From assembly GCA_029068555.1 (NCBI GenBank), contig JAIECJ010000147.1, forward strand, positions 9,410 to 24,943: a DNA stretch of 15,534 bases, in the 5' to 3' direction. This DNA comes from Lachnospiraceae bacterium (GTDB lineage Bacteria; Bacillota; Clostridia; Lachnospirales; Lachnospiraceae). Both the position numbers and the translations under genes were made by a program. Below are positions 1,047 through 15,534 of the stretch, piece after piece (within the stretch, counting starts at the first letter, position 1; each line of letters begins with the position of its first letter). The notes beneath the pieces are model-generated. The model saw only the letters and a list, made by a program, of their open reading frames with translations, ran no database searches and was not told the origin of the DNA.

Positions 1047-4046
1047 ATGAAAAGAGGAAATGCAAAGAGAGTCATGGCGCTTAGCATGGCAGTATGTATG
1101 GTCGCAGCCACGGCAGTGACATCGCTTCCGACAATGCAGCTAAGGGCACAGGAATCAGAACAGACAACTCAGGGGACGGAGACAGAAAATTATTCAAATG
1201 AGAGACTGGATAACGGTTACACAAAAATCAGTGCGGGGTACACGCTTTCCGCATACACTGGGGAGCCGGTTCGCTACAAAATGAGCAATGTGTACAAATC
1301 AGGGGATGCCAGTCTGACAAGAGAGTATGGGTATGTGGGAAACGGAGAGGATGATGGCGCACTTTCCATTCCGGAGAAAGGAAAGGTGGAGCTTGAAATC
1401 GACGTGCCGCAGTCAGCAGTTTACTATATGAACTTTGACTATCTGGCAAATAGTGAGTCCATTCTTCCGGTTGAGGCAGGTATCATGGTTAATGGTGCCT
1501 ATCCGTTTTATGAGATGCGTCAGCAGAAGCTTGAGAGTCAGTGGACGGCGAAAGACAAAAAAGTGTATGACAGCTACGGCAATGAAGTTGTCAGCATGCC
1601 GGATAAGGTGTACGACTGGCAGAATAAGTATGTGCAGGATTCCACATACCGATATACACAGCCGCTTGGCATTGAGCTTCAGCAGGGGAAAAATTCCATT
1701 TCTATTGAATTAAATGAAGGTACCCTTTTGCTGGGGGACATTTGCCTGACGGCAAAGCCGCAGATACCAGAATACACAGGAAGCGAGACGGCGCCGGGCG
1801 ATGGATTTATCGAGATACAGGCGGAGGACTTTTTGTATAGAAACGATTCGGCAATCCATGCGACTTGTGAGTATGATCCGGATTTGTATCCCTATCAGGC
1901 GGGAAACAGGGTTATGAATACTGTTGATGCGACGTCTTTCGGAAAAGGTGGTCAGGAAGTGACTTACATCTTTGATGCAGAGCAGACAGGAAATTACTAT
2001 GTCGCATTTCACTACAGTCAGGGCGATAAAGCGGACTTCCCAGTATTTATGAATGTGAAGATAGATGGCAGTATTCCGAATACAGCCTTTGAAAATCATG
2101 CGTTTGCATATGAGAAAAAATATGAAATGTACACAATGGTTGACGGGGACGGAAACAGAATCAGCGTGCCGCTTGAGGCAGGCAGACATACGATTTCCAT
2201 GCAGATTAGCATGGAGCCGGTCCGAGAGTCCCTTGAGACCATTGAGAAAATTATGGGAAAGGTCAATGACCTGTCACTTGAGGTCACAAAGGTTGCTGGC
2301 ACAAACAAAGACAAATTCAGGGACTTCTCCCTGGAGGAATATATTCCGGGAATCGGCGAAACCATGACAGGGTGGGCGGATGAGTTGAATCAGGTCATGG
2401 AAAACGCAAGGGTGTATAATCCAAAGAAAAACAAGATAGCAGCATATGCCTCTATCAAGATTGCGGAGAACCAGCTGCGGAGTCTGGCAAAGAAGCCAGA
2501 TGAACTGATTTACAGAATCGACGAGCTTGCAACAAGCACCTCCTCTGTAAACCAGCATCTTGCCAACCTTATAGACAGTCTTAACGGCAATGATTTCGCG
2601 CTTGACAGTATTTATCTGTATCAGGAAAATGCTGCAAAGCAGCTTCCGAAGAACAAGAATATATTTGTGAAGGTATGGCTTGGCATTGTGCGGTTTTTTA
2701 CTTCCTTTGGCGAGCAGGCATACTCCTCGACAAATACCAATCCGGAGCATTTGCAGGTTTCGGTAAACCGTTCCAGACAGCACCTTGAGATTATGCAGCT
2801 TCTGATTAATGAGCAGTTTACACCGCAGACGGGAATAGAGGTAGACCTTTCTCTGATGCCGGATCAGACAAAGCTGGTGCTTGCCAATGCGTCAGGGGAT
2901 TCGCCGGACGTGGCAACAGGGGTCAATTACTCCATTCCGTTTGAGCTTGGTATCAGGGGGGCGTTGAAAGATCTGACGGAATTTGATGATTTTGCAGAGA
3001 TTGCGGAGCGTTACAATGCAGGACTTATTATGCCATATGTTATTGGTGACCGAATCTATGCGCTTCCGGAGACAATGAATTTCCAGGTGATGTTTTACAG
3101 GAAAGATATCCTTGACAAACTAGGACTTGAGGTTCCGGATACACTCGAGGATGTGCAGGCAATGCTCCCTGACTTGCAGATGAGAGGACTGAATTTTTAC
3201 TACCCGACGGCAAGGACGGTGGGTATGAAGACGTTTCTCGACACGACGCCGATTTTGTTCCAGAGCGGAGGAAATCTGTATGATGGTACGGTTGACCAGG
3301 CGGTGTTAACCAGCGAGGAGAATGTGGAAGGCTTTACAACAATGACAAACTTGTTTACCATATACAATCTTCCAAAGGATGTGCCAAACTTCTACCAGCA
3401 TTTTAGAAACGGGGATTATCCGATTGGTATTTCTGACTTTGGAAATTACAACATGATTTCGAATGCGGCTCCTGAGATTGACGGTTCATGGGGGGTGGCG
3501 CTGATTCCGGGTGTAAAGGATGAAAACGGAGAAGTGATGCGTTATTCATCGGCGGGCGCTGAGTCGACATTTCTGTTTGAATCTACACCTGAGCGGGAAC
3601 AGCAGGCATGGGAGTTTGTGAAGTGGTGGTCAAGTGCACAAGTGCAGGCTGAATTCGGACAGCGGCTTCAGATTACATATGGTGATGAATACTATTGGAA
3701 TACTGCAAATGCGGAGGCGTTTGCACAGCTTCCGTGGGACAGCGACGACAAAGAAGTTATTTTGGAGCAGCTTGAGTGGACGCTGGAGGCTCCGAGAGCG
3801 TTGGCAAGCTATATGGTGGAGCGTGAGCTTTCCGACGCATACAATCTTGTGGTGCTTGGAGCAAAGAGCGCTTCTGTGCGTGAGTCGCTTGATGATGCGC
3901 AGAAGAGTGTGAAGCGTGAGACCCAGAGAAAGCTTGAGGAATTTGGCTATATTGAGAATGGTGTGATGGTTGAGGAATATGAAGTGCCGACTGTCGAGAA
4001 AGTGCGTGAGATTATAGCCAATTCAAAATCGAAGGGGGTGAAATAG
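1047..4046 (+). CDS. Giant (~999 aa) secreted solute-binding protein: signal peptide, two tandem CBM6/35-like beta-sandwich modules, a helical linker, and a family-1 ABC sugar SBP domain
   Basis: ORF 1017-4046. I prefer the ATG at 1047 (MKRGNAKRVMALSMAVCMVAATAVTSLPTMQLRAQE is a positive N-region plus hydrophobic core) with AAAGG ~11 nt upstream. Module 2 opens with the CBM6/35-like 'FIEIQAEDF' and contains 'GQEVTYIFDAEQTGNYYVAFHYSQG'. Module 1 has the analogous 'GKVELEIDVPQSAVYYMNFDY'. The C-terminal ~400 aa (PDVATGVNYSIPFELGIRGALKDL...YALPETMNFQVMFYRKDILDKLGLEVPDTLEDV...WEFVKWW) reads as an extracellular solute-binding protein. Its stop codon directly abuts the ATG of a permease gene. Confidence 0.8.
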   Translation: MKRGNAKRVMALSMAVCMVAATAVTSLPTMQLRAQESEQTTQGTETENYSNERLDNGYTKISAGYTLSAYTGEPVRYKMSNVYKSGDASLTREYGYVGNGEDDGALSIPEKGKVELEIDVPQSAVYYMNFDYLANSESILPVEAGIMVNGAYPFYEMRQQKLESQWTAKDKKVYDSYGNEVVSMPDKVYDWQNKYVQDSTYRYTQPLGIELQQGKNSISIELNEGTLLLGDICLTAKPQIPEYTGSETAPGDGFIEIQAEDFLYRNDSAIHATCEYDPDLYPYQAGNRVMNTVDATSFGKGGQEVTYIFDAEQTGNYYVAFHYSQGDKADFPVFMNVKIDGSIPNTAFENHAFAYEKKYEMYTMVDGDGNRISVPLEAGRHTISMQISMEPVRESLETIEKIMGKVNDLSLEVTKVAGTNKDKFRDFSLEEYIPGIGETMTGWADELNQVMENARVYNPKKNKIAAYASIKIAENQLRSLAKKPDELIYRIDELATSTSSVNQHLANLIDSLNGNDFALDSIYLYQENAAKQLPKNKNIFVKVWLGIVRFFTSFGEQAYSSTNTNPEHLQVSVNRSRQHLEIMQLLINEQFTPQTGIEVDLSLMPDQTKLVLANASGDSPDVATGVNYSIPFELGIRGALKDLTEFDDFAEIAERYNAGLIMPYVIGDRIYALPETMNFQVMFYRKDILDKLGLEVPDTLEDVQAMLPDLQMRGLNFYYPTARTVGMKTFLDTTPILFQSGGNLYDGTVDQAVLTSEENVEGFTTMTNLFTIYNLPKDVPNFYQHFRNGDYPIGISDFGNYNMISNAAPEIDGSWGVALIPGVKDENGEVMRYSSAGAESTFLFESTPEREQQAWEFVKWWSSAQVQAEFGQRLQITYGDEYYWNTANAEAFAQLPWDSDDKEVILEQLEWTLEAPRALASYMVERELSDAYNLVVLGAKSASVRESLDDAQKSVKRETQRKLEEFGYIENGVMVEEYEVPTVEKVREIIANSKSKGVK

Positions 4047-4958
4047 ATGGCAGTCAAAAAAACCAAGGCTGCTCAGCGCGAGCATGCCAACAAGGCGGCG
4101 TATGCGTTTCTGGCTCCGTATGTAATCCTGTTTACCATCTTTATCATTATTCCAATGATGGTGGCAATAGCGCTTTCCTTTACAAGCTATGACACGATAC
4201 AGGCGCCTACTTTCAAAGGGTTTCTGAACTACATAAACCTGCTGACGGCGGATGATATTTTCATGCAGAAGGTATTGCCGAACACAATTATCTATGCGGT
4301 GATTGTAGGGCCTGGCGGATATGTCTTGTCGTTTCTGGTTGCATGGCTTCTGGCGCAGCTAAGCTCGGTTCCGAGAACAATACTGACAGTCATCTTTTAT
4401 TCACCGAGTATGACTGGAGCGGTGTCTATGACGGTGCTCTGGAAGATTATTTTCTCCGGTGACCAGATGGGGTACCTGAACAGTTTTCTGATGCGCCTGG
4501 GCGTTATCGACGCGCCGATTATCTGGCTGGTGGACGCCAGATACCTGCTTCCGATTATTATTATCGTAGCGCTGTGGTCGAGCATGGGCGTTGGATTCCT
4601 TGCGATGCTTGCCGGCATTCTGAATGCGGACGAGGAAATCTATGAGGCGGCAGCGATTGACGGTGTGAAGAACCGTTTTCAGGAGATGATTTATATCACG
4701 ATACCAACCATGAAACCGCAGATGCTTTTCGGTGCAGTTATGGCTATCGTGGGCGCTTTCCAGAACGGTGCAATCGGTGTCCAGCTTGCAGGAACAAACC
4801 CGACGCCAAATTATGCGGGGCAGCTGATTGTCAACCATATTGAAGATTATGGTTTCCTGAGATACGAGATGGGTTATGCCGCTGCAGTTTCTGTTGTGCT
4901 GCTTCTGATGGTGTTTGCATTCTCGAAGTTCTTCGGGCGGCTGTTTCGAGAAGATTAA
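4047..4958 (+). CDS. Carbohydrate ABC transporter permease (MalF/CUT1-type), importer 1
   Basis: 303 aa with multiple hydrophobic spans. The N-terminal '[21 protein letters not shown]' is typical of sugar permeases. EAA loop: '[29 protein letters not shown]'. GGGGGTG RBS upstream, and the ATG immediately follows the upstream TAG. Confidence 0.9.
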
Positions 4959-4970
4959 GGGAGGTGCGAT

Positions 4971-5843
4971 ATGGCTGGATATAAAGGAAGTAATATCAAT
5001 CCCAAGAAGTTTGAGATTGGTCAGTTAAAAATAGTACTGGTACTTTTGCCGCTTGCGGTTTTTATGGGGATTCCCATTGTGTTCATTGTCTGCCATGCGT
5101 TTAAACCGATGGATGAGTTGTTTGCGTTCCCACCGCAGATTATCGTACACAGGCCGACACTCGACAATTTTGTTAAATTGTTTAAGGCTTCGGCAAACAG
5201 CAATATTCCCATGAGCCGTTATGTGTTTAATAGTCTGATTGTGACAGGCTGCGTTGTTCTGTTGTCAATCCTGTTTTCCACGATGGCGGGATTTGCGCTG
5301 TCAAAGCTCCGTTTCAAGGGAAAGTATGCATTGCTTGAGGTGAACAATACTGCGTTGATGTTTGTGTCGGTGGCGGTTATGATTCCGAGATATCTTGTAA
5401 TTGATGCGCTTGGTATGAAGGATACATATTTTGCACATATTCTGCCGCTTCTCGCCATGCCTGTAGGACTGTTTCTGGTAAAACAGTTCATCGACCAGAT
5501 ACCAGATGCGCTGCTTGATGCGGCGTACATGGATGGAGCGTCGGATTTCAAGATTTATCGTTCGATTATTCTGCCGCTTGTGAAGCCGGCAATAGCGACG
5601 ACGGCGATTCTTGCTTTCCAGCAGGTCTGGGTAAATGTTGAGAGCTCAAATTTTTATATTAATGACGAGAGTATGAAGACGCTGGCATTTTATCTGAATA
5701 CACTGGCGAACCAGAATAGCAATGTGGCAGGGCAGGGAATTCAGGCTGCCGGTATTCTGATACAGTTTATACCGAATCTTGCAATTTTCTTAATCCTCCG
5801 GAAGAGCTTTATGAACACAATGGCTCATTCAGGCATCAAATAG
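4971..5843 (+). CDS. Carbohydrate ABC transporter permease (MalG/CUT1-type), importer 1
   Basis: 290 aa with multiple TM spans. EAA loop: 'LLDAAYMDGASDFKIYRSIILPLVKPAI'. GGGAGGTG RBS lies 6 nt upstream of the ATG. Confidence 0.9.
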   Translation: MAGYKGSNINPKKFEIGQLKIVLVLLPLAVFMGIPIVFIVCHAFKPMDELFAFPPQIIVHRPTLDNFVKLFKASANSNIPMSRYVFNSLIVTGCVVLLSILFSTMAGFALSKLRFKGKYALLEVNNTALMFVSVAVMIPRYLVIDALGMKDTYFAHILPLLAMPVGLFLVKQFIDQIPDALLDAAYMDGASDFKIYRSIILPLVKPAIATTAILAFQQVWVNVESSNFYINDESMKTLAFYLNTLANQNSNVAGQGIQAAGILIQFIPNLAIFLILRKSFMNTMAHSGIK

Positions 5844-5860
5844 CGGAAAGGAGGTGCGAA

Positions 5861-7894
5861 ATGAGACAAAAAGTAAAAATGGTGATTTTGATGGTGTTGT
5901 GTCTAAGCATGATTGCCGGCTCCACAGCTATTGCTGAAACGCCTTATAGGACATATACGGTAGATGGTTACGGATACGTGCTGGAAACGCAGTCCGCATA
6001 CAATCCGGCGTCTGCCATCACAAAAGTCGGGGAGACCTCTTTTGTGACGCCGATGGATATGGCAATCGGAAATGATGGAAACCTGTATATTGCGGATGCG
6101 GGTGCTCATGTGGTTATGGTCAGCACAGTCGGAGGTGACGAAGTGCGCATGATTGGGGAGGGTACACTACAGTCGCCGACAGGTGTGTTTGTGTCGGATG
6201 ATGACAAGGTGTATGTCGCTGACAAGGATGCGAAAAAGGTATTTGTATATGACTTGGAAGGCACTCTTCTAAACGAGTATGGGAAGCCGGATTCACCGAT
6301 TTATGGGAACAGTATGGACTTCAAGCCAATCAAGGTTGTGGCAAACAACACAGGCACAATGTATGTGATTTGTGAGGGAAATATGAATGGTATTGTCCAG
6401 ATTAGCCCTGTGGACGGCGGTTCATTCCTTGGCTATTTTGGAACAAATTACACGTCGCTAAGCCCGTTTCAGATCCTGCAGCGGCTGATTCTGACGGACG
6501 CGCAGAGGGCGCAGATGCTGAGTAATATACCTTCGACACCGACCAATCTTCACATTGATGAGGACGGACTGATTTACACTGTGACACAGGGCGACAAGGA
6601 TATGGCACTGAAGAAGCTGAATATTGCGGGTAAAAACTTGCTGGATTCAGATCCATACTGGGCAGACCTGCCGGCGGCAGTGACGACAGGGCAGTATCAT
6701 AATATGCTGGTGGCAGACTCGGATGGATATATTTACGAGTACAATGAGGAGGGTGAGCTTCTGTTTATGTTTGGCGGACGGGATGACGGACGCCAGCGAA
6801 TCGGCCTGTGCAACAAGGTAGAGGCAGTGGCAGTAGATGCTTCTGACAGGATTTACCTGCTGGATTCGGACAAGAGGCAGGTACATATTTTTGAGCCGAC
6901 AGAGTTTACAAACCTTCTTCACGAAGCGCTGTATCTGTTTTCAAAAGGAAGGTATACAGAGAGCAAGGAGCCGCTTGAAAAAGTTTTGCAGATGAACAGT
7001 ATGTTTGACTATGCCAACCAGGCGATGGGGCATGCATATCTGCAGGAGGAGAATTATACAGAAGCGCTGCGGTATTTTAAGTTAGCCAAGTCAGCAGACG
7101 GTTATTCGGATGCGTTCTGGGAGGTCAGAAATATTTGGATTCGGAATTATCTGGTGGCGGCGGTTGCAGCGATTGTGGCAGCATCAGTGGCGCTCAGCCT
7201 TTATAAAAAGAGGCAGCGAATCAAGTACGGGGAGAATGGTGCACCTGCATATTTTTCACAGAGAGTACCGCTTCTGGGAACACTCAGGTACAGTCTGCAT
7301 TTTATGCGGCATCCGTTTGACGGCTGCTATGGCGTGAAACGTGAAGGCCGGGCGAGCATTGCCTGCGCGAATATTCTGCTTGCGGCATACATCCTTGTCT
7401 CGATTATTGAGAAGTACTTCAGCGGTTTTCTTGTAAAGACAGTCAGGGAAGGTCGGTATGACATTATTTCGGATATTGGCACAGTTCTTGTTATTTTTTT
7501 CGGATTGACGCTCTGCAATTATCTGGTTGTTACAATCAATGAGGGCGAGGCTTTTTTGAAAGAGCTGTACTGTGCTTATGCATACTGTCTGACTCCATTT
7601 ATCGTTATTAAACCATTTGTAGTGATTCTGTCAAATGTGCTGACGTACAATGAAGTTTTCCTGATTTCGTTTGCAAACATTATTGTATTGGTATGGATGC
7701 TGGTACTGTTATTGATATCTGTTAAGGAGATGAATAATTTTTCGGTAAAGGAGACGGCAAAAGCGCTGGCGCTGACTGCATTTACCGTTTTGATACTCTC
7801 CCTGCTGATTTGTATTATATATGTATTGTTCTCACAGGTTATCGACTTCATAAGTTCTGTATTGCGAGAGGTGGTGTATAGAATTGGAAGCTAA
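5861..7894 (+). CDS. Membrane fusion protein: signal peptide, six-bladed NHL-like beta-propeller, TPR-like helices, a TM helix, and a C-terminal 5-TM Yip1-like domain
   Basis: 677 aa with an AAGGAGGTG RBS. Signal peptide: MVILMVLCLSMIAGSTAIA/ET. There are six repeats of the NHL-type blade motif (GNLYIADAGAHVVMV; DKVYVADKDAKKVFVYD; GTMYVICEGNMNGIVQI; GLIYTVTQGDKDMALKKL; MLVADSDGYIYEYN; DRIYLLDSDKRQVHIFE). TPR-like segment: ALYLFSKGRYTESKEPLEKVLQMNSMFDYANQAMGHAYLQEENYTEALRYFKLAK. A TM helix (LVAAVAAIVAASVALSLY) is followed by KKRQRIK. About 5 further TM helices follow, in a region that reads like a Yip1-family domain. Confidence 0.75.
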   Translation: MRQKVKMVILMVLCLSMIAGSTAIAETPYRTYTVDGYGYVLETQSAYNPASAITKVGETSFVTPMDMAIGNDGNLYIADAGAHVVMVSTVGGDEVRMIGEGTLQSPTGVFVSDDDKVYVADKDAKKVFVYDLEGTLLNEYGKPDSPIYGNSMDFKPIKVVANNTGTMYVICEGNMNGIVQISPVDGGSFLGYFGTNYTSLSPFQILQRLILTDAQRAQMLSNIPSTPTNLHIDEDGLIYTVTQGDKDMALKKLNIAGKNLLDSDPYWADLPAAVTTGQYHNMLVADSDGYIYEYNEEGELLFMFGGRDDGRQRIGLCNKVEAVAVDASDRIYLLDSDKRQVHIFEPTEFTNLLHEALYLFSKGRYTESKEPLEKVLQMNSMFDYANQAMGHAYLQEENYTEALRYFKLAKSADGYSDAFWEVRNIWIRNYLVAAVAAIVAASVALSLYKKRQRIKYGENGAPAYFSQRVPLLGTLRYSLHFMRHPFDGCYGVKREGRASIACANILLAAYILVSIIEKYFSGFLVKTVREGRYDIISDIGTVLVIFFGLTLCNYLVVTINEGEAFLKELYCAYAYCLTPFIVIKPFVVILSNVLTYNEVFLISFANIIVLVWMLVLLLISVKEMNNFSVKETAKALALTAFTVLILSLLICIIYVLFSQVIDFISSVLREVVYRIGS

Positions 7895-7901
7895 AGTTGA
7901 T

Positions 7902-10217
7902 ATGAAGAAAACAGGCAAGGGCCTTATAAAATTTGGCATAGCTGTGCTGGCCATTATCGTTATTGTGGCAGTTGCAGTGGCGGCTTCCAAGTCCGGTGGG
8001 AAGGACAGCCTGAATGTCAGTGAGCTTCAAACGGCAGTGAATGCACCTGAGGCTGCACTGAGCGATGGCGCTGTGGATACGTCCAGACAGCTTGACGGAC
8101 ATCATCTGGTGGCGGCAAATGATACCTACGAGCTTTATCTGTATGAACCTGCACTTTCCATTATTGTTAAAAATATAAAGACAGGTGCGGTGATGGAGTC
8201 CACTGTCCGTGACGAGGAGCGTCTTGGAAATGTCAATGAGACATGGAAAGGATTTTTACAGTCGGGAATTGTTGTGGAGCTTCAGGAGGAGACCAACACT
8301 ATGCAGAAGAAGCTGGGACTAGAGGGAAGCGGTGCACAAGTCAATGTTGAACTGATTCCTGGCGGATTCCGTGCAAAGGTAGATTATCCGACGCAGGAGC
8401 TTGGGTTTGAAACCGAGGTGAAGCTCTATGACGACGGAAGTATCACAGCATGTATTCCTGAGCGTTCTATCTATGAGCACGCAGATAACAAAAAGATTGG
8501 TAACATTTATGTGTTTCCGCTTCTTGGAAACTCAAGGCTTGGTGAGAAAGACGGGTACATGTTTGTGCCGGATGGAAACGGCGCACTGATTTATCTGGAC
8601 GACAAGGAAGGACGGTTTGATTCTGGATATGTTCAGAAGGTGTATGGCTCTGACATTGGCGTCGGAGAGTCCTATGTGCTTTCTCTTTTGTGGGGGCGCT
8701 ACGAGACACACAATGATGCGGAGATGATTCTGGCGCCGGTTTACGGCATGGTTCACACAGGAGATGAGATGGGATATCTTGCCGTTATCGAGAGCGGTGA
8801 TGAGGAGGCTTCCATCTATGCGACACCCAACGGTGCATATTCCGATTACAACTGGATTACGGCAGCATTCCGGAAGTGCACGACCTATATCCAGCCGACA
8901 TCTAATTCAGGCGGTTCTGTTACAAAAGTAACTGACAGGATAAAATACGACATTAATGTCAGGTATATGTTTGTCGACGGTGAGGATGCAGACTACACAG
9001 GACTGGCAAAACGCTACAGGGAGTATCTCCTGGAAAAGGATGAGCTGGTCAGGGTGGAGGACAGTTTTAAGGTGCGGCTTGACTTCCTTGGGCTGGATGT
9101 CGAAAACTGGATGCTGTGGAAAAAGGATGTGCCGGTGACGACTGTAGACAATATCAGGGAAATGTATGCAGACTTGGAAAAAGAGGGTGTCACAGATATT
9201 CTTTCTTTGTACAAAGGATGGCAGGATGGCGGCATTTATGACTTGCCTGTGACCACATATGATGTGGCGGGCGGCATAGGCGGCGCAGGTGACTTGTCGA
9301 AGCTCATGGACGAATGTGAGCAGAAAAATATTGATTTTTACCTATTTACAGACGGTGTGCGTGCAAACACCGAGACTGGAAACACAACATTTGACACGGT
9401 TAAGAAGATGGATAAACGTCTCTACACACAGAATACATACCAGAATGTGTATCGTGAGTTTGTGTACTGGACACCGCAGAAAACACTTGAAAATTTAAAC
9501 ACACTTCAGAAGAATCTCGCAAAAAAGGGTGTCAATAAGATCGCATTGTCAGTAATTGGGAATACGCTGTTTACCTACACGATGGGTGATACGATGCAGA
9601 CCCGCGGCGTCTCAAAATACCTGTACGAAGAAGCGCTGAGACAGACAAGTGAGAATATGGATCTAATGCTGGAAGCGCCGGTTGAATGCTATTGGCAGTA
9701 TGCAAAAGCGATTGTGGATATGCCGATTGACGACTCCGATTATATTTACACAGACCAAAGCGTACCGTTTTTGTCGATTGTATTAAAGGGAATCCTTCCG
9801 ATGTATGGCGACTATGTGAATTTTGAGGCAAATGAGAGGGAGTATTTCTTAAAACTGGTGGAGACAGGAATCTATCCATCGTTTTATCTGACATATGAGA
9901 ATCCGTCTGAACTGATTTATACCAATTCAAGCCATGTGTATACTTCACAGTACACAGTGTACCGTGAACAGATACTGCGTTATTACAATGAGCTGCGGCA
10001 GATTAGTGAGCTTACGAAAAACAGTATGATTGATGAACATGAAATAACTGACACAGGTGTCATAATTGTAACCTATGATAATGGTGTAAAGCTGTATATC
10101 AATTATTCTGACGCAGAGCTGAAGGCAGATGACGTGACAGTTCCCGCACTTTCATATGTGGCTCGTGTAAATAATGAATTGACAGGCATAGCAGGAATGG
10201 GGGTGGATGAAGGATGA
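7902..10217 (+). CDS. N-terminally membrane-anchored extracytoplasmic protein, DUF5696-like; putative uncharacterised glycoside-hydrolase-like enzyme
   Basis: The ORF track opens at TTG 7884, which has GAGAGGTGG ~10 nt upstream and would overlap the upstream gene by 11 nt. The first ATG is at 7902 (MKKTGKGLIKFGIAVLAIIVIVAVAVAAS, a signal anchor), so the start is ambiguous between these two. The body shows beta-rich N-terminal and C-terminal parts flanking alternating beta/alpha segments (RLDFLGLD, ILSLYKGWQDGG, IDFYLFTDG, KIALSVIGN, LMLEAPVE, VDMPIDDSDY). The family name is from memory of similar ~800 aa proteins next to sugar ABC genes and needs an HMM check. Confidence 0.65.
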   Translation: MKKTGKGLIKFGIAVLAIIVIVAVAVAASKSGGKDSLNVSELQTAVNAPEAALSDGAVDTSRQLDGHHLVAANDTYELYLYEPALSIIVKNIKTGAVMESTVRDEERLGNVNETWKGFLQSGIVVELQEETNTMQKKLGLEGSGAQVNVELIPGGFRAKVDYPTQELGFETEVKLYDDGSITACIPERSIYEHADNKKIGNIYVFPLLGNSRLGEKDGYMFVPDGNGALIYLDDKEGRFDSGYVQKVYGSDIGVGESYVLSLLWGRYETHNDAEMILAPVYGMVHTGDEMGYLAVIESGDEEASIYATPNGAYSDYNWITAAFRKCTTYIQPTSNSGGSVTKVTDRIKYDINVRYMFVDGEDADYTGLAKRYREYLLEKDELVRVEDSFKVRLDFLGLDVENWMLWKKDVPVTTVDNIREMYADLEKEGVTDILSLYKGWQDGGIYDLPVTTYDVAGGIGGAGDLSKLMDECEQKNIDFYLFTDGVRANTETGNTTFDTVKKMDKRLYTQNTYQNVYREFVYWTPQKTLENLNTLQKNLAKKGVNKIALSVIGNTLFTYTMGDTMQTRGVSKYLYEEALRQTSENMDLMLEAPVECYWQYAKAIVDMPIDDSDYIYTDQSVPFLSIVLKGILPMYGDYVNFEANEREYFLKLVETGIYPSFYLTYENPSELIYTNSSHVYTSQYTVYREQILRYYNELRQISELTKNSMIDEHEITDTGVIIVTYDNGVKLYINYSDAELKADDVTVPALSYVARVNNELTGIAGMGVDEG

Positions 10218-11236
10218 AGGGCAGCAGAAAAATAAAACCCGGACAGCTTGAGCGCCGGGAGAATGCGATTGGTTATCTTTTCATATTGCCATGGCTTATC
10301 GGAATCCTGGTGCTGGTGCTGTGGCCGATGGTGCAGTCCTTTGGGTATTCGCTCAATAAGATAAGGCTCTTGCCGCAGGGTATGGCAAAGCTCTATGTCG
10401 GATTTGAGAATTATAGTCAGATATTCCTAAAGGATCCGGATTTCATTATGGGACTGGAATCGTATCTGCTGGAGACATTGATTGCCGTTCCGGTTATTGT
10501 GGCATTTTCACTGATTATAGCGATGCTGTTGAATCAGAAAATTTCCTGCAGAGGAATTTTTCGAATGGTATTCTTCCTTCCGATTATCATCGCCAGCGGA
10601 CCAGTCATGCAGCAGCTGGCCGACCAGGAGGCGGCGAGCATTCCAATGATGAATGTGACGATGATAGAGCAGCTTTTGGATGAGTATCTTCCGCATGTGC
10701 TGGCAGTGAGTCTCACAAGCGTATTTAGTAATATGATTACGCTGCTATGGTACTCCGGCGTACAGATTTTGATTTTCCTTGCGGCGTTGCAGAAGATTGA
10801 TACTTCGCTTTATGAGGCGGCAAAGATGGATGGCGGTTCCAAGTGGGAATGCTTCTGGAAGATTACACTGCCGACCGTCAAGCCGATGATTCTGCTGAAT
10901 GTTGTCTACACAGTAATCTTTATGTCAAATAATGAGCAGAATGCGTTGATTGTACTGATTTATGACACGATGCTTTCCGCCACGGGCGGTTACGGATATG
11001 CTTCCGCGATGGCATGGCTGTATTCTGTCATCGAGTCGGCAATTGTTATTTTCTTTGCGGTCCTGATTATGGGACGCAAGGACGTGTACGAGAGACGTGC
11101 AAAGAAGTACCAGCGTGAGCTGAGGAAACAAAAACGCCTTGAGAAGAAGATTAGAAAGAGGGGTGAGCGAAATGAGCGAAACTACGCAAAGCAAAAAGAG
11201 AAGCGGCAGCGAAAGCATTCTAAAAAGAGTGCTTAG
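10214..11236 (+). CDS. Carbohydrate ABC transporter permease (MalF-type), importer 2, with an unusual ~48 aa Lys/Arg-rich C-terminal tail
   Basis: 340 aa. The ATG overlaps the upstream TGA (ATGA at 10214-10217), with a GGGGGTGGATGAAGG RBS. N-terminus: 'IGYLFILPWLIGILVLVLWPM'. EAA loop: 'SLYEAAKMDGGSKWECFWKITLPTVKPMI'. Tail: YERRAKKYQRELRKQKRLEKKIRKRGERNERNYAKQKEKRQRKHSKKSA. Confidence 0.9.
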   Translation: MKGSRKIKPGQLERRENAIGYLFILPWLIGILVLVLWPMVQSFGYSLNKIRLLPQGMAKLYVGFENYSQIFLKDPDFIMGLESYLLETLIAVPVIVAFSLIIAMLLNQKISCRGIFRMVFFLPIIIASGPVMQQLADQEAASIPMMNVTMIEQLLDEYLPHVLAVSLTSVFSNMITLLWYSGVQILIFLAALQKIDTSLYEAAKMDGGSKWECFWKITLPTVKPMILLNVVYTVIFMSNNEQNALIVLIYDTMLSATGGYGYASAMAWLYSVIESAIVIFFAVLIMGRKDVYERRAKKYQRELRKQKRLEKKIRKRGERNERNYAKQKEKRQRKHSKKSA

Positions 11237-12197
11237 TTCCGAGGGCAGGGAACAGATAAAGTACAAGGTCAGAAAATTTATATTTGGTTCCAAGGATACA
11301 GAGGGTGCAGGTAAGCTTGCCGTAATCTATCTGCTGCTAATCAGCATTGGGTTTGTCTATCTCTATCCGGTTCTGTATATGATCAGCAAGAGCTTTATGA
11401 ACCTCAATGATTTGCTCGACACCTCGATTAACTGGATTCCAAGCCAGCTGTATCTTGAAAATTACAAACAGGCATTTCAGTCCATGGACTACTGGAAGAC
11501 GTTTCGCGATTCTGTCGTGATTGCGGGATTTCCGACATTGATAAACGTTGTTATTTGCGCCATTGTCGGATATGGATTTGCGCGCTATGAGTTCAAGGGG
11601 AAGAAGCTATGTATCGGACTGCTTCTGTTTTCTTTCATCCTGCCGCCGCAGGCAACAATGATGCCTACCTATGTGTTTTATACAGATATCGGATTAATCA
11701 ATTCGATTATGGCGTTTATCATCCCGGCGCTGCTTGGACAGGGACTGAAATCGCAGATATTTATCCTGATTTTCTTTAACTTTTTCCGTCAGATACCGAA
11801 GGTACTGATAGAGGCGGCAAAGATAGACGGGGCAGGACATTTTAAGATTTTCCGCAAAATTGCGCTGCCCTCCGCGGCTCCCGCGATTCTGGTTGTGTTC
11901 CTGTTCTCAATTGTATGGTACTGGAATGAGTCATATCTGACGCAGCTCTATGTCGTTGGCGCGTTTACAAGCAATGCGGACGCGTATCACTGGAGTTCGC
12001 TGATTGTATCGCTCAAGAATTTTGAAAATAGTTACAATACTGCAAGAAGTGTCGCCGGAAGCGGAATGGTTGACATTAACGAGTCGATTAAGATGGCTGG
12101 GACGATGCTCAGTATATTACCACTGCTGATTATGTATCTGGTACTTCAGAAGCAGTTTGTTGAGAGCGTGGACAGAACCGGAATCACCGGGGAATAA
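11172..12197 (+). CDS. Carbohydrate ABC transporter permease (MalG-type), importer 2
   Basis: The ORF is open from 11139. I prefer ATG 11172 (MSETTQSKKRSGS...), which has a GAGGGGTG RBS ~6 nt upstream. This gives a 65 nt overlap with the upstream gene. An alternative GTG at 11229 has no RBS. EAA loop: 'LIEAAKIDGAGHFKIFRKIALPSAAPAI'; multiple TM spans. Confidence 0.85.
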   Translation: MSETTQSKKRSGSESILKRVLSSEGREQIKYKVRKFIFGSKDTEGAGKLAVIYLLLISIGFVYLYPVLYMISKSFMNLNDLLDTSINWIPSQLYLENYKQAFQSMDYWKTFRDSVVIAGFPTLINVVICAIVGYGFARYEFKGKKLCIGLLLFSFILPPQATMMPTYVFYTDIGLINSIMAFIIPALLGQGLKSQIFILIFFNFFRQIPKVLIEAAKIDGAGHFKIFRKIALPSAAPAILVVFLFSIVWYWNESYLTQLYVVGAFTSNADAYHWSSLIVSLKNFENSYNTARSVAGSGMVDINESIKMAGTMLSILPLLIMYLVLQKQFVESVDRTGITGE

Positions 12198-12213
12198 AAA
12201 CGAACCGTTTTTT
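12196..12213 (+). other. Small hairpin AAAACG-AAC-CGTTTT followed by a T run, between permease and SBP genes (weak attenuator or mRNA-processing/stability element?)
   Basis: A 6 bp stem with a 3 nt loop, then TTTT, starting at the TAA of the permease gene. The stem is short and AT-rich, so it is probably leaky at best. Confidence 0.2.
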
Positions 12214-12258
12214 GGCAAGGTAATTTTTAAATTATATATTAATAAGGAGGAATGAAAC

Positions 12259-13869
12259 ATGAAAAAGAAAATGGTAAGCTTTATGATGACTGCGGCTTTG
12301 GCGGCTGGTCTGCTTAGTGGGTGCGGTGGAGGTTCCGGCTCGGCTCCGGCGACTGACAGCGCCAGCACTGGAACAAATGCAGGTGCGAATACGGATGCAA
12401 ATGCAAGTTCAGGGGATACGGCAGGTGACACGGCTGCGGCTGGGGAGCTTCCGGCGATGACTACGGATGAGATTACACTGACTTATATGCATTTTGACAA
12501 TGAGCAGCTTGTAAACAGGGTGGCGGAAGCATTTATGGATAAGTACCCGAATATCAAAGTGGAAGCACAGGCGTTTTCCACGGACGGATATAATGACACT
12601 CTTCTGAATCTTGTTCAGTCCGGTCAGACGCCTGACTGCTTTATGATTCTGGGTAACTGTGATTTCGCGCTCTCCAATGCGCTGCTTGGCGATATGACAC
12701 CGTACTGGGAGGCTGACCCTGAGAATCAGAATATCCTTCCTTCCATCAACAGTGCGAGGCTTGGTTATTATGGAACAGACAAGAAGCTTGCGACACCGAT
12801 TAAGTTTTTTCCGGATGCAATTTACTGTGATTTGAATGTGTTTGAGACCTTGAATATTGAAGCGCCATCTACAAACTGGACATGGGACGAGATGATCAAT
12901 ACGTTTAAGGCTGCGACCAATACGGACGCAGGAACCTATGGGTTTAACCAGTTCCACTCCGTTGTCACATATTATCCGATTTCCAACGGCAACAATCTGA
13001 TAGGAGAGTTTGGATGGGATGGCAAGGCATATCATATGGATCAGTGGGCAGCAGGTGTAAACCAGTGGGCGGAGCTTGTAAATGGAAAGTATCATGCACC
13101 GTATGGCGATACAGACGAGATGGAGGCATGGACAGGTGACAGAACGATGTGGGCGGCATACACAGGAAAACTTGGTTTCCAGATTGACGCGTGGTGGACT
13201 TATCTGAACCTGTTTGATACGCCGGACTATAGAAACCGCGGTATGGAATGGGTTCCTTACACAACACCGGCAAGCCAGAGCGGATATGTATTTGGCGTGC
13301 TTGACTTCGGCGGTATTTCTTCTTCTACAAAACATCCAAGAGAGGCGTATGAGCTTTTAAAGTGGATGGGCTGGGGCGCTGAAGGCTGGCAGACAAAGCT
13401 TGATGCTTATCAGGATGTCGAGACTTATGCGGATCTTCCGCTCTACAGACAGTCAATGCCTTGTCCGATTACGACAGATGCGGATATCTGGAAAGAGTTC
13501 CAGGAGTCCTTCTATCCGACAGCAGCCACAAGAACATTCCAGGCAGTAAATGACCCGGTAAACGGTGAAGCGCTTGTTACGGCAGACGAGGACACGAAGT
13601 ACGGCAAGTATTTTGATGATTTCTTCGCAAACTGCAAGAATCCGATACCATTTGGCGACTGTCAGATTCCGGGATTTGCTGACTTCCTTGATACATCTTA
13701 TCGTGCAGTGGGCGATACGCTGGGCGTGGAAGATCAGGTTCGCTTAGAGGGCAAAAATGCAAGTGACTTTGCGGCAGAGCTTGAACAGAAAGCTTACGAT
13801 GCAAATCAGGCAGCTTTGGCAGCAGCCAAGGAAGCATATCAGATGATTGGTATTGAACTGAATTATTAA
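12259..13869 (+). CDS. Lipoprotein extracellular solute-binding protein (family 1, large LplA-like sugar SBP), importer 2
   Basis: 536 aa with an AAGGAGG RBS at 12244-12250. Signal peptide with a canonical lipobox: MKKKMVSFMMTAALAAGLLSG/C. This is followed by a ~45 aa Gly/Ser/Thr/Ala/Asp low-complexity tether, then an SBP-like body (ITLTYMHFDNEQ...YPNIKVE...EAYELLKWMGWG). Confidence 0.85.
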   Translation: MKKKMVSFMMTAALAAGLLSGCGGGSGSAPATDSASTGTNAGANTDANASSGDTAGDTAAAGELPAMTTDEITLTYMHFDNEQLVNRVAEAFMDKYPNIKVEAQAFSTDGYNDTLLNLVQSGQTPDCFMILGNCDFALSNALLGDMTPYWEADPENQNILPSINSARLGYYGTDKKLATPIKFFPDAIYCDLNVFETLNIEAPSTNWTWDEMINTFKAATNTDAGTYGFNQFHSVVTYYPISNGNNLIGEFGWDGKAYHMDQWAAGVNQWAELVNGKYHAPYGDTDEMEAWTGDRTMWAAYTGKLGFQIDAWWTYLNLFDTPDYRNRGMEWVPYTTPASQSGYVFGVLDFGGISSSTKHPREAYELLKWMGWGAEGWQTKLDAYQDVETYADLPLYRQSMPCPITTDADIWKEFQESFYPTAATRTFQAVNDPVNGEALVTADEDTKYGKYFDDFFANCKNPIPFGDCQIPGFADFLDTSYRAVGDTLGVEDQVRLEGKNASDFAAELEQKAYDANQAALAAAKEAYQMIGIELNY

Positions 13870-13916
13870 TATGTGCATAATATAACAAAGCATTTTACCG
13901 GATAATAAAATAATGA

Positions 13917-13952
13917 AAAGGAGGGCATTATTTGAAATGCTCTCCTTTTTTC
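13917..13952 (+). terminator. Rho-independent terminator ending the eight-gene operon
   Basis: AAAGGAGGGCAT (13917-13928), loop TATTTGAA, then ATGCTCTCCTTT (13937-13948). This is a 12 bp stem with one G-U pair, followed by TTTT. It lies 48 nt after the SBP stop codon. Confidence 0.75.
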
Positions 13953-13978
13953 AAAACATCCATGCAGGAGGAATCAAC

Positions 13979-15534
13979 ATGATAAAAAAAGTAGCGGCAG
14001 GAATGCTTGTGACTGCCCTTTTGACGGGAATGCTCGGCGGCTGTGAAAACGGCAGGACAGATTCTGCAGGCAGTGAGGCGCCTGTGCAGGAAAGCACTGT
14101 GTCAGAAGTGCATACAGATGAAAGTAATGCAACGGGCGAGAATCATACACAAAATATGCAGCCAGACAAAACGGCGCAGGAAGAGGAGGAAACAGAAATG
14201 ACAGAAGTGTCATTTAATCGTGTGAGTGTGCATGACCCTTCAGTCCGATATGATAACGGAACCTACTACATTTTTGGTTCTCATATGGCTTGGGCGAAAA
14301 GCACAGATTTGAGAAACTGGGAAACCTTTCAGACGAACATCAATGCAGACTATGCAAGTCTGTTTGGAAAGGAGTGGGAGGCGTACTGCAGGACGGCAAC
14401 AAATCCAGACCTGAACGGAAACCTGTGGGCGCCGGATGTCATTTATAATCCGAACATGGATAAGTATTGTTTTTATATGAGCGTAAATGGCAATGACTGG
14501 AATTCGGTGATTGTTCTGCTCACTGCGGACAGCATAGAGGGACCATATGAGTACGCGGGACCAGTGGTGTACTCGGGTTTTAATACGGACTCGCATGATG
14601 TCAGGCTCACGGATGTATATCAGGTGCTCGGGGAAGATGCAGACCTTGCCAGATATCAGAATATCAAAAACACCAAGCTCAATGCAATCGATCCATGCGT
14701 CCTTTTCGACAGGGATGGATCGCTCTGGATGGTATTTGGCTCCTGGTTTGGCGGCTTGTACATGCTCAGGCTCGACGAGAACACAGGGCTTCGCGACTAT
14801 ACGACAACATATGAAACGATACCGAACGCGCAGGATGCGTATTATGGCTATAAGGTGCATGGCGGGTTTGGTGTGTCTGGGGAGGGACCTTATATTATAG
14901 AAAAAGACGGATACTATTATCTGTTTGTCTCTTACGGCGGACTTGTGGCGGACGGCGGCTATCAGATTCGCATATTCCGTTCGAAAAATATTATGGGACC
15001 TTACGTGGACGAGGCGGGAAACAGCGCAGTCTACACAAAGGAGTGCAATGATCTATTTGAAAAGGTAGGCGTCCGCATCATGGGTTCCTATGACTGGACA
15101 GGAAATCGTGAAATCCGTGTGGCGCAGGGACACAATTCTGCGTGTGTGACAGAGGACGGTGAAATTTTCATGATATACCACTCACGGTTTGCCGGCGGCA
15201 AAAATGGTGTTTCGGAGGCACATGAGGTACGCGTGCAGCAGCTCTTTGTCAATGAAGACGGCTGGCTTGTCGCAGCGCCTTACGAATACGCAGGTGAGAA
15301 AATCAGCAGGACAGGATATGCTGTCGAGGAGATGTGTGGTGATTACGAATGGATAGTGCATATGCCGACAACATATTATCAAAAAGCTGGAAGCAAGACG
15401 TTGGGAGTCATGCAGCCGTCAAAAATAACATTGAATGCGGATGGAACGGTTTCAGGCGAACTTACAGGAAAGTGGACGTATGAAGACGGAACGCCCAATA
15501 TGACAATCACAGTTGACGGTGTGACATATAAAGG
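13979..15534 (+). CDS. Glycoside hydrolase family 43 lipoprotein (arabinanase/arabinofuranosidase/xylosidase-type five-bladed propeller plus start of a C-terminal beta-sandwich); 3' end runs off the window
   Basis: Not in the ORF track because it is open at the window edge. The ATG at 13979 is preceded by AGGAGGA (13966-13972). The frame stays open to 15534. Signal and lipobox: MIKKVAAGMLVTALLTGMLGG/C. An acidic low-complexity tether follows. GH43 hallmark motifs are 'VHDPSVRYDNGTYYIFGSH' (catalytic base Asp), 'LWAPDVIYN', 'NAIDPCVLFDRDGSLWMVFGSW' (pKa-modulating Asp), 'GEGPYIIEKDGYYYLFVSYG' (catalytic acid Glu) and 'AQGHNS'. Confidence 0.85.
   Translation, partial: MIKKVAAGMLVTALLTGMLGGCENGRTDSAGSEAPVQESTVSEVHTDESNATGENHTQNMQPDKTAQEEEETEMTEVSFNRVSVHDPSVRYDNGTYYIFGSHMAWAKSTDLRNWETFQTNINADYASLFGKEWEAYCRTATNPDLNGNLWAPDVIYNPNMDKYCFYMSVNGNDWNSVIVLLTADSIEGPYEYAGPVVYSGFNTDSHDVRLTDVYQVLGEDADLARYQNIKNTKLNAIDPCVLFDRDGSLWMVFGSWFGGLYMLRLDENTGLRDYTTTYETIPNAQDAYYGYKVHGGFGVSGEGPYIIEKDGYYYLFVSYGGLVADGGYQIRIFRSKNIMGPYVDEAGNSAVYTKECNDLFEKVGVRIMGSYDWTGNREIRVAQGHNSACVTEDGEIFMIYHSRFAGGKNGVSEAHEVRVQQLFVNEDGWLVAAPYEYAGEKISRTGYAVEEMCGDYEWIVHMPTTYYQKAGSKTLGVMQPSKITLNADGTVSGELTGKWTYEDGTPNMTITVDGVTYK

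Follow-up and report, generated by a model that had tools for sequence, protein, structure and literature searches.

Glycan uptake by Gram-positive bacteria of gut and soil is usually pictured as the work of simple ATP-binding cassette (ABC) importers encoded beside enzymes. The CUT1 importers of Gram-positive polysaccharide utilization loci (gpPULs) include AraNPQ of Bacillus subtilis, with its shared ATPase MsmX, and AbnEFJ of Geobacillus. A gpPUL is reportedly defined by the co-location of a polysaccharide-degrading enzyme, a transporter, and a regulator. Here, we analyzed a stretch of 15,534 nt from a gut Lachnospiraceae bacterium (assembly GCA_029068555.1, contig JAIECJ010000147.1, positions 9,410–24,943 of the forward strand), referred to as the window, in which eight genes (1047–13869) encode two permease pairs (a1a2 and b1b2), two solute-binding proteins (SBPs; S1 and S2), an NHL-TPR-Yip1 membrane protein (Y), and a DUF5696 protein (D). 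On balance, these genes appear to be the arabinan version of a widespread Firmicutes cassette of fixed order that encodes a single multi-subunit glycan-uptake apparatus. The composition that we would favor for this apparatus is two CUT1-type translocons (a1a2 and b1b2), the binding proteins S1 and S2, and the obligatory accessory proteins Y and D.

The cassette resembles the described CUT1 importers in its MalE-like binding proteins, its MalF/MalG-type permease pairs, and the lack of an ATPase gene in the locus, and it shares with their gpPULs a co-located glycoside hydrolase (GH) of family GH43 (GH51 in relatives), a regulator, and an arabinan or arabinose context. It differs from them in three respects: two translocons are always paired, with Y and D as obligatory genes between the permease pairs; S1, of approximately 1000 aa, lacks a lipid anchor and carries two beta-sandwiches and a helical bundle ahead of its binding fold; and the scaffold recurs with unrelated enzyme sets. 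The window itself fits the gpPUL definition, with a GH43 lipoprotein, two ABC systems, and a divergent ArsR-type regulator, to which related loci add GH51, a second GH43, and araA/B/D. In the accessible part of a gpPUL survey of Roseburia and E. rectale, loci with two ABC systems are listed and this module is not (PMC5320581).

A second point of comparison is YknWXYZ of Bacillus, an ABC exporter of four components, where a bacterial Yip1-family membrane protein is likewise encoded with an ABC transporter and where YknW, the Yip1-family member, modulates assembly of the YknXYZ transporter (PMC4887032). This was the only functional precedent that we found for a bacterial Yip1 protein. The likeness has limits, since YknYZ is a MacB-type exporter that works together with a membrane-fusion protein and confers protection from a peptide toxin, whereas the cassette encodes type I sugar importers, and no NHL or TPR ectodomain such as that of Y is described for YknW (PMC4887032).

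The Sus-like systems and outer-membrane utilisomes of Bacteroidota resemble the cassette in function only: the genes for surface proteins that bind glycans, for a surface enzyme, and for a transporter lie together, and exchange of the enzymes and of the binding specificity adapts a single scaffold to many glycans. The cassette lacks the TonB-dependent SusC as well as SusD, lies in the cytoplasmic membrane, is ATP-driven, and consists of unrelated components. An earlier interpretation made from the letters of the window (the sequence-only reading) had suggested that the locus is a Gram-positive functional analog of a Sus-like system; the analogy would be one of function only, with no SusC/SusD-type component among the ten window proteins by Pfam. 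The same reading knew of no experimental description of such a module, and in the open-access papers and bioRxiv preprints that we searched, the cassette was not found described as a module either. DUF5696 (PF18952) was not mentioned in this literature, and none of it linked Yip1, NHL, and sugar ABC transporters.

Conservation of the gene order

Open reading frame (ORF) listing of the + strand gave nine ORFs, namely the eight cassette genes, followed by a terminator and a GH43 gene. The sequence-only reading had described eight co-directional, tightly joined genes and given the distance at each junction; the ORFs bore out the former and the sequence matched all of the latter. S1 (1047–4046) directly abuts a1 (4047–4958), with 0 nt between them (4046/4047), while 12 nt separate a1 from a2 (4971–5843) and 17 nt separate a2 from Y (5861–7894). 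The gene for D, ending at 10217, follows Y after a 7-nt gap if it starts at ATG 7902 or overlaps it by 11 nt if it starts at TTG 7884. As the deposited D is a hypothetical protein of 777 aa, the start used in GenBank is TTG 7884, and gene calls in close relatives also show the 11-nt overlap. D and b1 (10214–11236) share a 4-nt ATGA overlap (10214–10217). The start of b2 is ambiguous, with ATG 11172 giving a 65-nt overlap with b1 and GTG 11229 as the other candidate (relatives were called with an 8-nt overlap); the gene ends at 12197 and a 61-nt gap separates it from S2 (12259–13869).

To assess conservation, an alignment of 12 D homologs was scanned against one genome per GTDB species, which yielded at least 300 related stretches; the best 80 of 300 (D 42–72% identical) were taken with 10-kb flanks. 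These originated from Roseburia, Acetatifactor, Agathobacter, Butyrivibrio, Anaerocolumna, Anaerosporobacter, Falcatimonas, L. phytofermentans KNHs2131, Clostridium sp. KNHs205, and one Oscillospiraceae genome. Gene calls in relatives' loci were longest-ORF calls, classified with hidden Markov models built from the orthologs. All eight genes occurred in the window order in 65 of the 80 loci, the other 15 were truncated by contig ends but consistent with it, and none was contradictory. Four D representatives of 26–28% identity also kept the core S1-a1-a2-Y-D-b1-b2 where the contig allowed. A scan of metagenome contigs with an alignment of distant D sequences provided 80 further loci (D 24–32% identical), and the same core order was found in every one of the 52 that had all seven core families. 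In a collection of 72,556 plasmids, separate searches with D, with Y, and with the N-terminal half of S1 all matched the same two loci and nothing else: a megaplasmid of Paenibacillus cellulosilyticus (Bacilli) and pNP243 of Butyrivibrio fibrisolvens. Tight Y/D and D/b1 junctions were a family-wide property, with an overlap or a gap of at most 13 nt in relatives, distant representatives, and plasmid copies alike.

This arrangement is far beyond chance and is not a chance tandem. The giant binding protein S1, Y, and D co-occur, and nowhere in the collections sampled were they found apart. Synteny of the central pair with the transporters, on which the sequence-only reading had staked its case, is kept down to approximately 24% identity in D, across Clostridia and in a Paenibacillus. 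The mirror symmetry that the same reading saw in the window is not a property of the system: S2 lay directly upstream of S1 in 31 of the 52 complete distant loci and never directly downstream of b2, and the symmetry is thus specific to the window's clade, S2 being usually upstream of S1 elsewhere. A recent duplication as the source of the mirror was considered and rejected, as a1 and b1 are 26% identical, a2 and b2 are 24.5% identical, and S1 and S2 gave no BLAST match.

Conservation was graded across the components. Median identity of the window proteins to those of the distant cassettes was highest for a1 (62.5%), followed by a2 (53%), b2 (43%), b1 (39%), S1 (34%), Y (32.5%), and D (27%), and lowest for S2 (24%).

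Several further features of the related loci were observed. A gene for a protein of 535–593 aa directly follows S2 in 44 of the 80 related loci and is missing from the window, in which S2 is followed by the terminator; a representative of this protein cluster had no Pfam match. The protein encoded after S2 in L. phytofermentans KNHs2131 (16226–18004 of that locus) has a Laminin_G_3/ConA-like domain and may belong to the 44-locus cluster. That locus comes from strain KNHs2131 and not from C. phytofermentans ISDg, in which the sole GH51 gene (Cphy1169) is followed by hypothetical, chemotaxis, and microcompartment genes rather than by the cassette. In another related locus (L016), a second giant binding protein of 1009 aa and an a1-like permease, cut by the end of the locus, lie a few kilobases after S2, possibly as a second cassette in tandem. 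Two close relatives of the window carry a Rep3-type plasmid replication initiator gene (21703–22292), approximately 4 kb downstream of GH43 and after MoxR-AAA and DUF58 genes. Both cassette copies in the plasmid collection are on large non-mobilizable replicons, and the cassette may often reside on accessory replicons.

Proteins of the cassette

Y is a membrane protein of 677 aa, named YIP1 family protein in GenBank, whose architecture was derived from Pfam matches to NHL, TPR, and Yip1, from NHL matches in the PDB, and from hydropathy. A signal peptide is followed by an NHL beta-propeller (residues ~27–345), a TPR region (~346–422), and one transmembrane helix; a cytoplasmic loop then leads to a polytopic Yip1-type domain (~497–677). 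The Yip1 match (PF04893) scored 37.7 bits against a cut-off of 28.6 over residues 507–649, and NHL (PF01436) scored 37.3 bits against a cut-off of 20; the TPR match was weak. Among PDB sequences, the propeller matched Thin, TRIM2/3, Brat, and the PknD sensor with E-values of 9e-13 to 5e-6, and hydropathy showed six hydrophobic segments in the C-terminal part of Y, with segments between residues 497 and 669. In B. fibrisolvens pNP243, the NHL and Yip1 parts are encoded by two genes with a 22-nt overlap (9162–11257 of that locus), and ORF calls in one distant locus (L142) show a similar division; either a real split or a frameshift could account for both.

D, which the sequence-only reading had called DUF5696-like, proved to be a full-length member of the family rather than merely similar to it, matching PF18952 with 549.9 bits (cut-off 25.6, E 1e-164) over profile positions 4–612 of 612. 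Its residues are numbered here from ATG 7902. Hydropathy indicates an N-terminal membrane anchor, and an AlphaFold2 (AF2) model built with 46 diverse homologs, with a mean predicted local distance difference test (pLDDT) score of 89.8, consists of a membrane helix followed by a (beta/alpha)8 barrel with one beta-sandwich on either side of it. Foldseek searches with this model returned GH129 first (5opq/8rzk/5wzn, E 1e-25 to 9e-32, TM-scores 0.62–0.72), then GH101, GH31, and GH36. The modeled D thus has the three-domain arrangement of GH129 with its central (beta/alpha)8 barrel and shares the beta-sandwich, barrel, and beta-sandwich succession with GH129 enzymes (the alpha-N-acetylgalactosaminidase NagBb and the 3,6-anhydro-D-galactosidase ZgGH129) and with GH101, GH31, and GH36. 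GH129 sequences were also matched when the D family profile was compared to PDB sequences (ZgGH129, E 5e-7; NagBb, E 2e-5), whereas a single-sequence search with D gave no match. The profile alignment is limited to the edge of the N-terminal sandwich, the first half of the barrel, and the C-terminal sandwich, and does not reach the catalytic half.

D and GH129 have in common a GW motif that follows barrel strand 2 and an Asp that follows strand 3, and the aromatic at D residue 440 matches the Trp of this motif. D differs from GH129 in being approximately 12% identical and membrane-anchored, in the second barrel half, which sequence leaves unaligned, and in lacking a conserved strand-end acid, the invariant acid of D being in the N-terminal domain. 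As judged from its modeled structure, D has a GH129/GH101/GH31-like fold; it is not assigned to CAZy family GH129. The invariant acid, D224, is always D or E and belongs to the N-terminal sandwich motif GYMFIPDGxGALI, outside the barrel. Among 139 D representatives, other conserved polar residues were N640 (139/139), N734 (138/139), and R568 (134/139), and E192, D/E399 (97% acidic), and R326 (93%) were also conserved. In the window D and its closest relative, a Cys occupies position 326 (8877–8879) in place of the Arg found in 93%, and an Arg is present two residues upstream instead.

Both S1 and S2 are SBP_bac_1/MalE-like binding proteins. S1 (999 aa) was classified from Pfam, an AF2 model, Foldseek, and PDB sequence matches, with SBP_bac_1/8 (PF01547/PF13416) matching only at residues ~580–870. 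The model (pLDDT 74) shows beta-sandwiches at ~65–235 and ~250–388, a helical bundle at ~390–515, and a MalE-like fold at ~517–965. The top Foldseek matches to S1 were oligosaccharide-binding proteins with TM-scores of about 0.8; with the whole model as query, only binding proteins were returned and the N-terminal domains matched no solved carbohydrate-binding module (CBM). The sequence-only reading had described S1 as a CBM-SBP; the CBM part would correspond to two predicted beta-sandwiches with weak similarity: CBM_35 scored 14.4 bits against a cut-off of 28, with the second beta-sandwich weakly CBM35-like, the same region was weakly CBM_35 in 9 of 10 orthologs (best 27.7 bits, E 3.7e-6, sub-threshold), and one S1 cluster representative had a precomputed PF16990 match. 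Identity to distant cassettes varies along S1, from 40% in the binding fold through 28% in the second beta-sandwich and 23% in the helical region to 15% in the first beta-sandwich.

S2 is a 536-aa lipoprotein that matches SBP_bac_1 (PF01547/PF13416) and carries the lipobox LLSGC, and 68 of 70 S2 orthologs have a lipobox-like motif; this lipobox and that of the GH43 protein (MLGGC) are both of the LxGC type. Hydropathy and the lipobox check showed an N-terminal hydrophobic helix and no lipobox in S1, and the lipid anchor was also missing from 47 of 47 distant and 63 of 71 orthologous S1 sequences. These checks are consistent with the variety of anchoring styles that had been read from the window. 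A 308-aa ORF on the − strand (12409–13335) lies wholly inside the well-supported S2 gene and, as its translation is also rich in Cys and Arg, it is most likely spurious.

Each translocon comprises a MalF-like and a MalG-like BPD_transp_1 permease of the CUT1 type: a1 and b1 matched UgpA/GlcT/MalF models, and a2 and b2 matched UgpE/GlcU/MalG models (Pfam, NCBIfam). The C-terminus of b1 bears a Lys/Arg-rich tail of ~45 aa (about 42% K+R; 11100–11236), within which the 65-nt b1/b2 overlap falls. The tail is present in 79 of 81 arabinan-clade orthologs, and neither a1 nor the b1 of distant cassettes has it. Because conservation is graded across the components and across the domains of S1, S2-b1b2 and the first S1 domain may carry specificity, with a1a2 and the S1 binding fold as the constrained core.

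Neighboring genes and the glycan

Upstream of the cassette, the N-terminal 145 aa of a divergent ArsR/MarR-type winged-helix regulator are encoded on the − strand (3–437; Pfam HTH_24/HTH_5, NCBIfam ArsR/SmtB subfamily). The gene is truncated by the left edge of the window, and its versions in relatives encode 308–314 aa. The AT-rich region between the two divergent genes (438–1046, GC ~36%) likely holds divergent promoters, judging from its composition and from promoter-like hexamers at 726–755 and 797–826, and this region contained no Rfam family and no convincing operator repeat. No tRNA or Rfam match was present in the window as a whole. Downstream, the strong terminator that the sequence-only reading had placed after the last gene was recovered from sequence and folding as an intrinsic terminator on the + strand (13915–13952) with a 15-bp stem (13915–13950) and a U run. 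The 96-nt stretch containing it (13870–13965) folds at −23.7 kcal/mol (z = −3.9). A simple terminator scan missed this stem, and its other matches on the + strand were weak intragenic hairpins. The terminator is followed by a gene for an AbnB-like (endo-arabinanase-like) GH43 and GH43_C lipoprotein on the + strand (13979–15534; Pfam, NCBIfam, lipobox), truncated by the window edge, which scored 283 bits with the NCBIfam AbnB model, below the equivalog cut-off of 750.

The flanks of the 80 orthologous loci contained an ArsR-type regulator in 50, a 326-aa GH43 in 45, the AbnB-like GH43 with GH43_C in 40, a GH51 arabinofuranosidase in 38, AraA in 9, an FGGY kinase in 8, and a class II aldolase/AraD-type protein in 6. 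Since GH43, GH51, and araA/B/D neighbor the cassettes of this clade, these are arabinan/arabino-oligosaccharide loci, which bears out the link to glycan use that had been drawn from the window and specifies it for the clade. The neighbors of the distant cassettes were of other kinds: GH31 (9 proteins), GH3 (8), GH16 (7), the putative glucoamylase PF10091 (6), and LacI (6), as well as GH13, GH30, GH66, and, in one locus, GH94. Enzyme families thus differ by clade around fixed genes, from which it follows that the cassette is a constant scaffold with exchangeable enzyme cargo. Regulators also vary by locus (ArsR-type, LacI, AraC, and histidine kinase/response regulator pairs). A ugpC-like ATPase gene lies directly upstream of the Paenibacillus cassette (3789–25412 of that locus). 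Downstream of the same cassette are genes for four LLM-class flavin-dependent oxidoreductases, for two further binding proteins, and for an NADPH oxidoreductase, neighbors which hint at a non-glycan or modified-sugar substrate.

Proposed apparatus and alternative explanations

In the single uptake apparatus that we favor, a physical complex would be formed, Y and D would have roles of their own, and labor would be divided between the translocons. The GH43 lipoprotein would cut arabinan extracellularly, and S1, without a lipid anchor, could hold the polymer or long fragments through its variable N-terminal beta-sandwiches while its MalE-like domain serves the highly conserved a1a2 translocon. 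The oligosaccharide specificity of b1b2 would be set by S2, which varies more than any other part. D, whose gene is translationally coupled to b1, would be anchored beside b1b2, where its GH129-like ectodomain may bind glycan and possibly trim it in a non-canonical manner. The Yip1 membrane domain of Y is a candidate assembly or bridging subunit for the translocons, with YknW in YknWXYZ as the precedent, and its NHL-TPR ectodomain might dock S1, D, or both. A shared MsmX/UgpC-type ATPase encoded elsewhere would power both translocons, and cytoplasmic GH51/GH43 and AraA/B/D, as seen in related loci, would complete the pathway. The co-translated surface machine and the import of two product classes that the sequence-only reading proposed are likewise a matter of inference.

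A number of observations weigh against this reading. S2 was undetected in 20 of the 52 complete distant loci, partly due to contig edges and divergence. One locus (L135) has D-b1-b2 with no S1-a1-a2-Y within 7 kb, the three genes being preceded by an AraC regulator and a dockerin protein and followed by GH31 genes, which shows that a half-cassette can exist alone. In three others (L128–L130), a gene for a GH31-dockerin protein of 1649 aa with F5/8-type-C and dockerin domains (4983–9932 in L128) lies between Y and D, which shows that the two need not be strictly adjacent. LLM flavin oxidoreductase genes rather than glycosidase genes follow the Paenibacillus cassette. Pfam found no ATPase gene in the window, and close relatives have none within 10 kb; CUT1 importers of Firmicutes usually rely on shared ATPases. 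The 61-nt b2-S2 gap contains a promoter-like TTGGCA-17-TATATT (12212–12240), which makes an extra transcript start for S2 possible, and folding showed no notable hairpin within this gap. Additional transcripts are common for binding-protein genes.

The remaining points concern D. Across the 139 representatives, no acid was conserved at the predicted ends of barrel strands 4–6, the expected site of the catalytic pair. An acid occurred at position 550 in 45%, at 591 in 25%, at both in 5%, and at neither in 35% (48/139). The acids at the two positions (window ~9549 and ~9672) are nearly mutually exclusive and follow clades, 36 of 42 arabinan-clade sequences having E591, and could represent a relocated catalytic or ligand-binding acid. 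The missing strand-end acid and the clade-specific acids at 550 and 591 leave an enzyme, a pseudo-enzyme, and a binding module all possible for D. The processing of glycan that the sequence-only reading ascribed to D thus agrees with its glycosidase-like fold and is at odds with the lack of a conserved acid at the expected catalytic strand ends.

A more specific form of the single-apparatus reading, which we put forward tentatively as plausible though short of probable, is an obligate supercomplex, a utilisome of the cytoplasmic membrane. In this form, the Yip1-type Y would bridge the two translocons, and the unanchored, CBM-bearing S1 and a GH129-derived D, possibly a pseudo-enzyme, would form a common extracellular glycan platform, which changes in S2, in the first S1 sandwich, and in the neighboring enzymes would direct to arabinan, beta-glucans, or alpha-glucans.

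The alternative that fares best is a capture-process-import line, in which S1 captures the polymer, D is an active non-canonical extracellular glycosidase, and the translocons import two product classes. It draws on the fold of D, which is of the retaining-glycosidase type (GH129, GH101, GH31, GH36) and related to GH129 by sequence profile, on the aromatic platform retained at residue 440, and on the other glycan-degrading enzymes carried by cassette loci. Candidate acids could also be named: D224 is always acidic, position 399 is acidic in 97%, and the clade-specific acid at 550 or 591 (E591 in 36/42 of the arabinan clade) could be a migrating acid/base. D224, however, sits in the N-terminal sandwich and outside the barrel, the ends of barrel strands 4 and 6 carry no conserved acid, and in 48 of 139 representatives neither 550 nor 591 is acidic. 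Moreover, the D family accompanies enzyme sets for alpha-L-arabinan, for beta-glucan, and for alpha-glucan/xyloside, a diversity that is hard to reconcile with one conserved catalytic center, and the D gene is embedded among the permease genes and coupled to them, unlike the swappable enzymes of these loci. Therefore, we regard an active D of this kind as rather unlikely.

Less likely still is that S1-a1a2 and Y constitute an ATP-driven device or sensor for a glycan-independent partner or signal, for instance one that positions or activates D, with S2-b1b2 as the sole real oligosaccharide importer. The unusual conservation of a1 and a2 (62% and 53%), the 40% identity of the S1 binding fold despite differing enzyme cargo (vs. 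24% for S2), the missing lipid anchor of S1 (47/47 distant and 63/71 orthologous sequences), and the ability of D-b1-b2 to stand alone in L135 would fit such a device. It is nevertheless improbable, given that a1, a2, and the C-terminal half of S1 are ordinary CUT1 importer parts by Pfam, NCBIfam, and fold, and that no type I importer is known to us to act as a mechanotransducer. The regulators also differ between loci (ArsR-type, LacI, AraC, histidine kinase/response regulator), which means that no fixed signaling output is attached to the cassette.

That the locus is an ordinary tandem, in which two sugar ABC importers are independent of each other and the two genes between them are unrelated, is very unlikely and close to refuted. 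Each half does have a full permease pair and a binding protein, L135 carries one half only, and Gram-positive polysaccharide loci with two ABC systems are listed in the gpPUL survey (PMC5320581). Against a tandem, Y and D lie between the permease pairs wherever the contig allows, to ~24% D identity, and the order is identical in all 65 complete loci of the orthologous set and all 52 of the distant set. D, Y, and S1 co-occur exclusively in the plasmid collection, overlapping or near-abutting junctions are conserved across classes, and the paralog pairs diverged anciently.

Compared to an importer standing beside its enzymes, the cassette has a far more elaborate architecture that is strictly conserved, common, and reused across glycans. 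Its scale is considerable, with at least 300 loci in GTDB species representatives by a single peptide pattern and at least 528 in metagenome contigs, and DUF5696 itself comprises 4167 clusters at 50% identity. For the window locus, arabinan and arabino-oligosaccharides are the first candidate substrates. If the cassette is one machine, DUF5696 and bacterial Yip1 proteins would gain a role, the capture of polymers by Lachnospiraceae, which have no outer membrane, would be explained, and the conserved genes would serve as markers by which loci for glycan use could be predicted in Firmicutes genomes.

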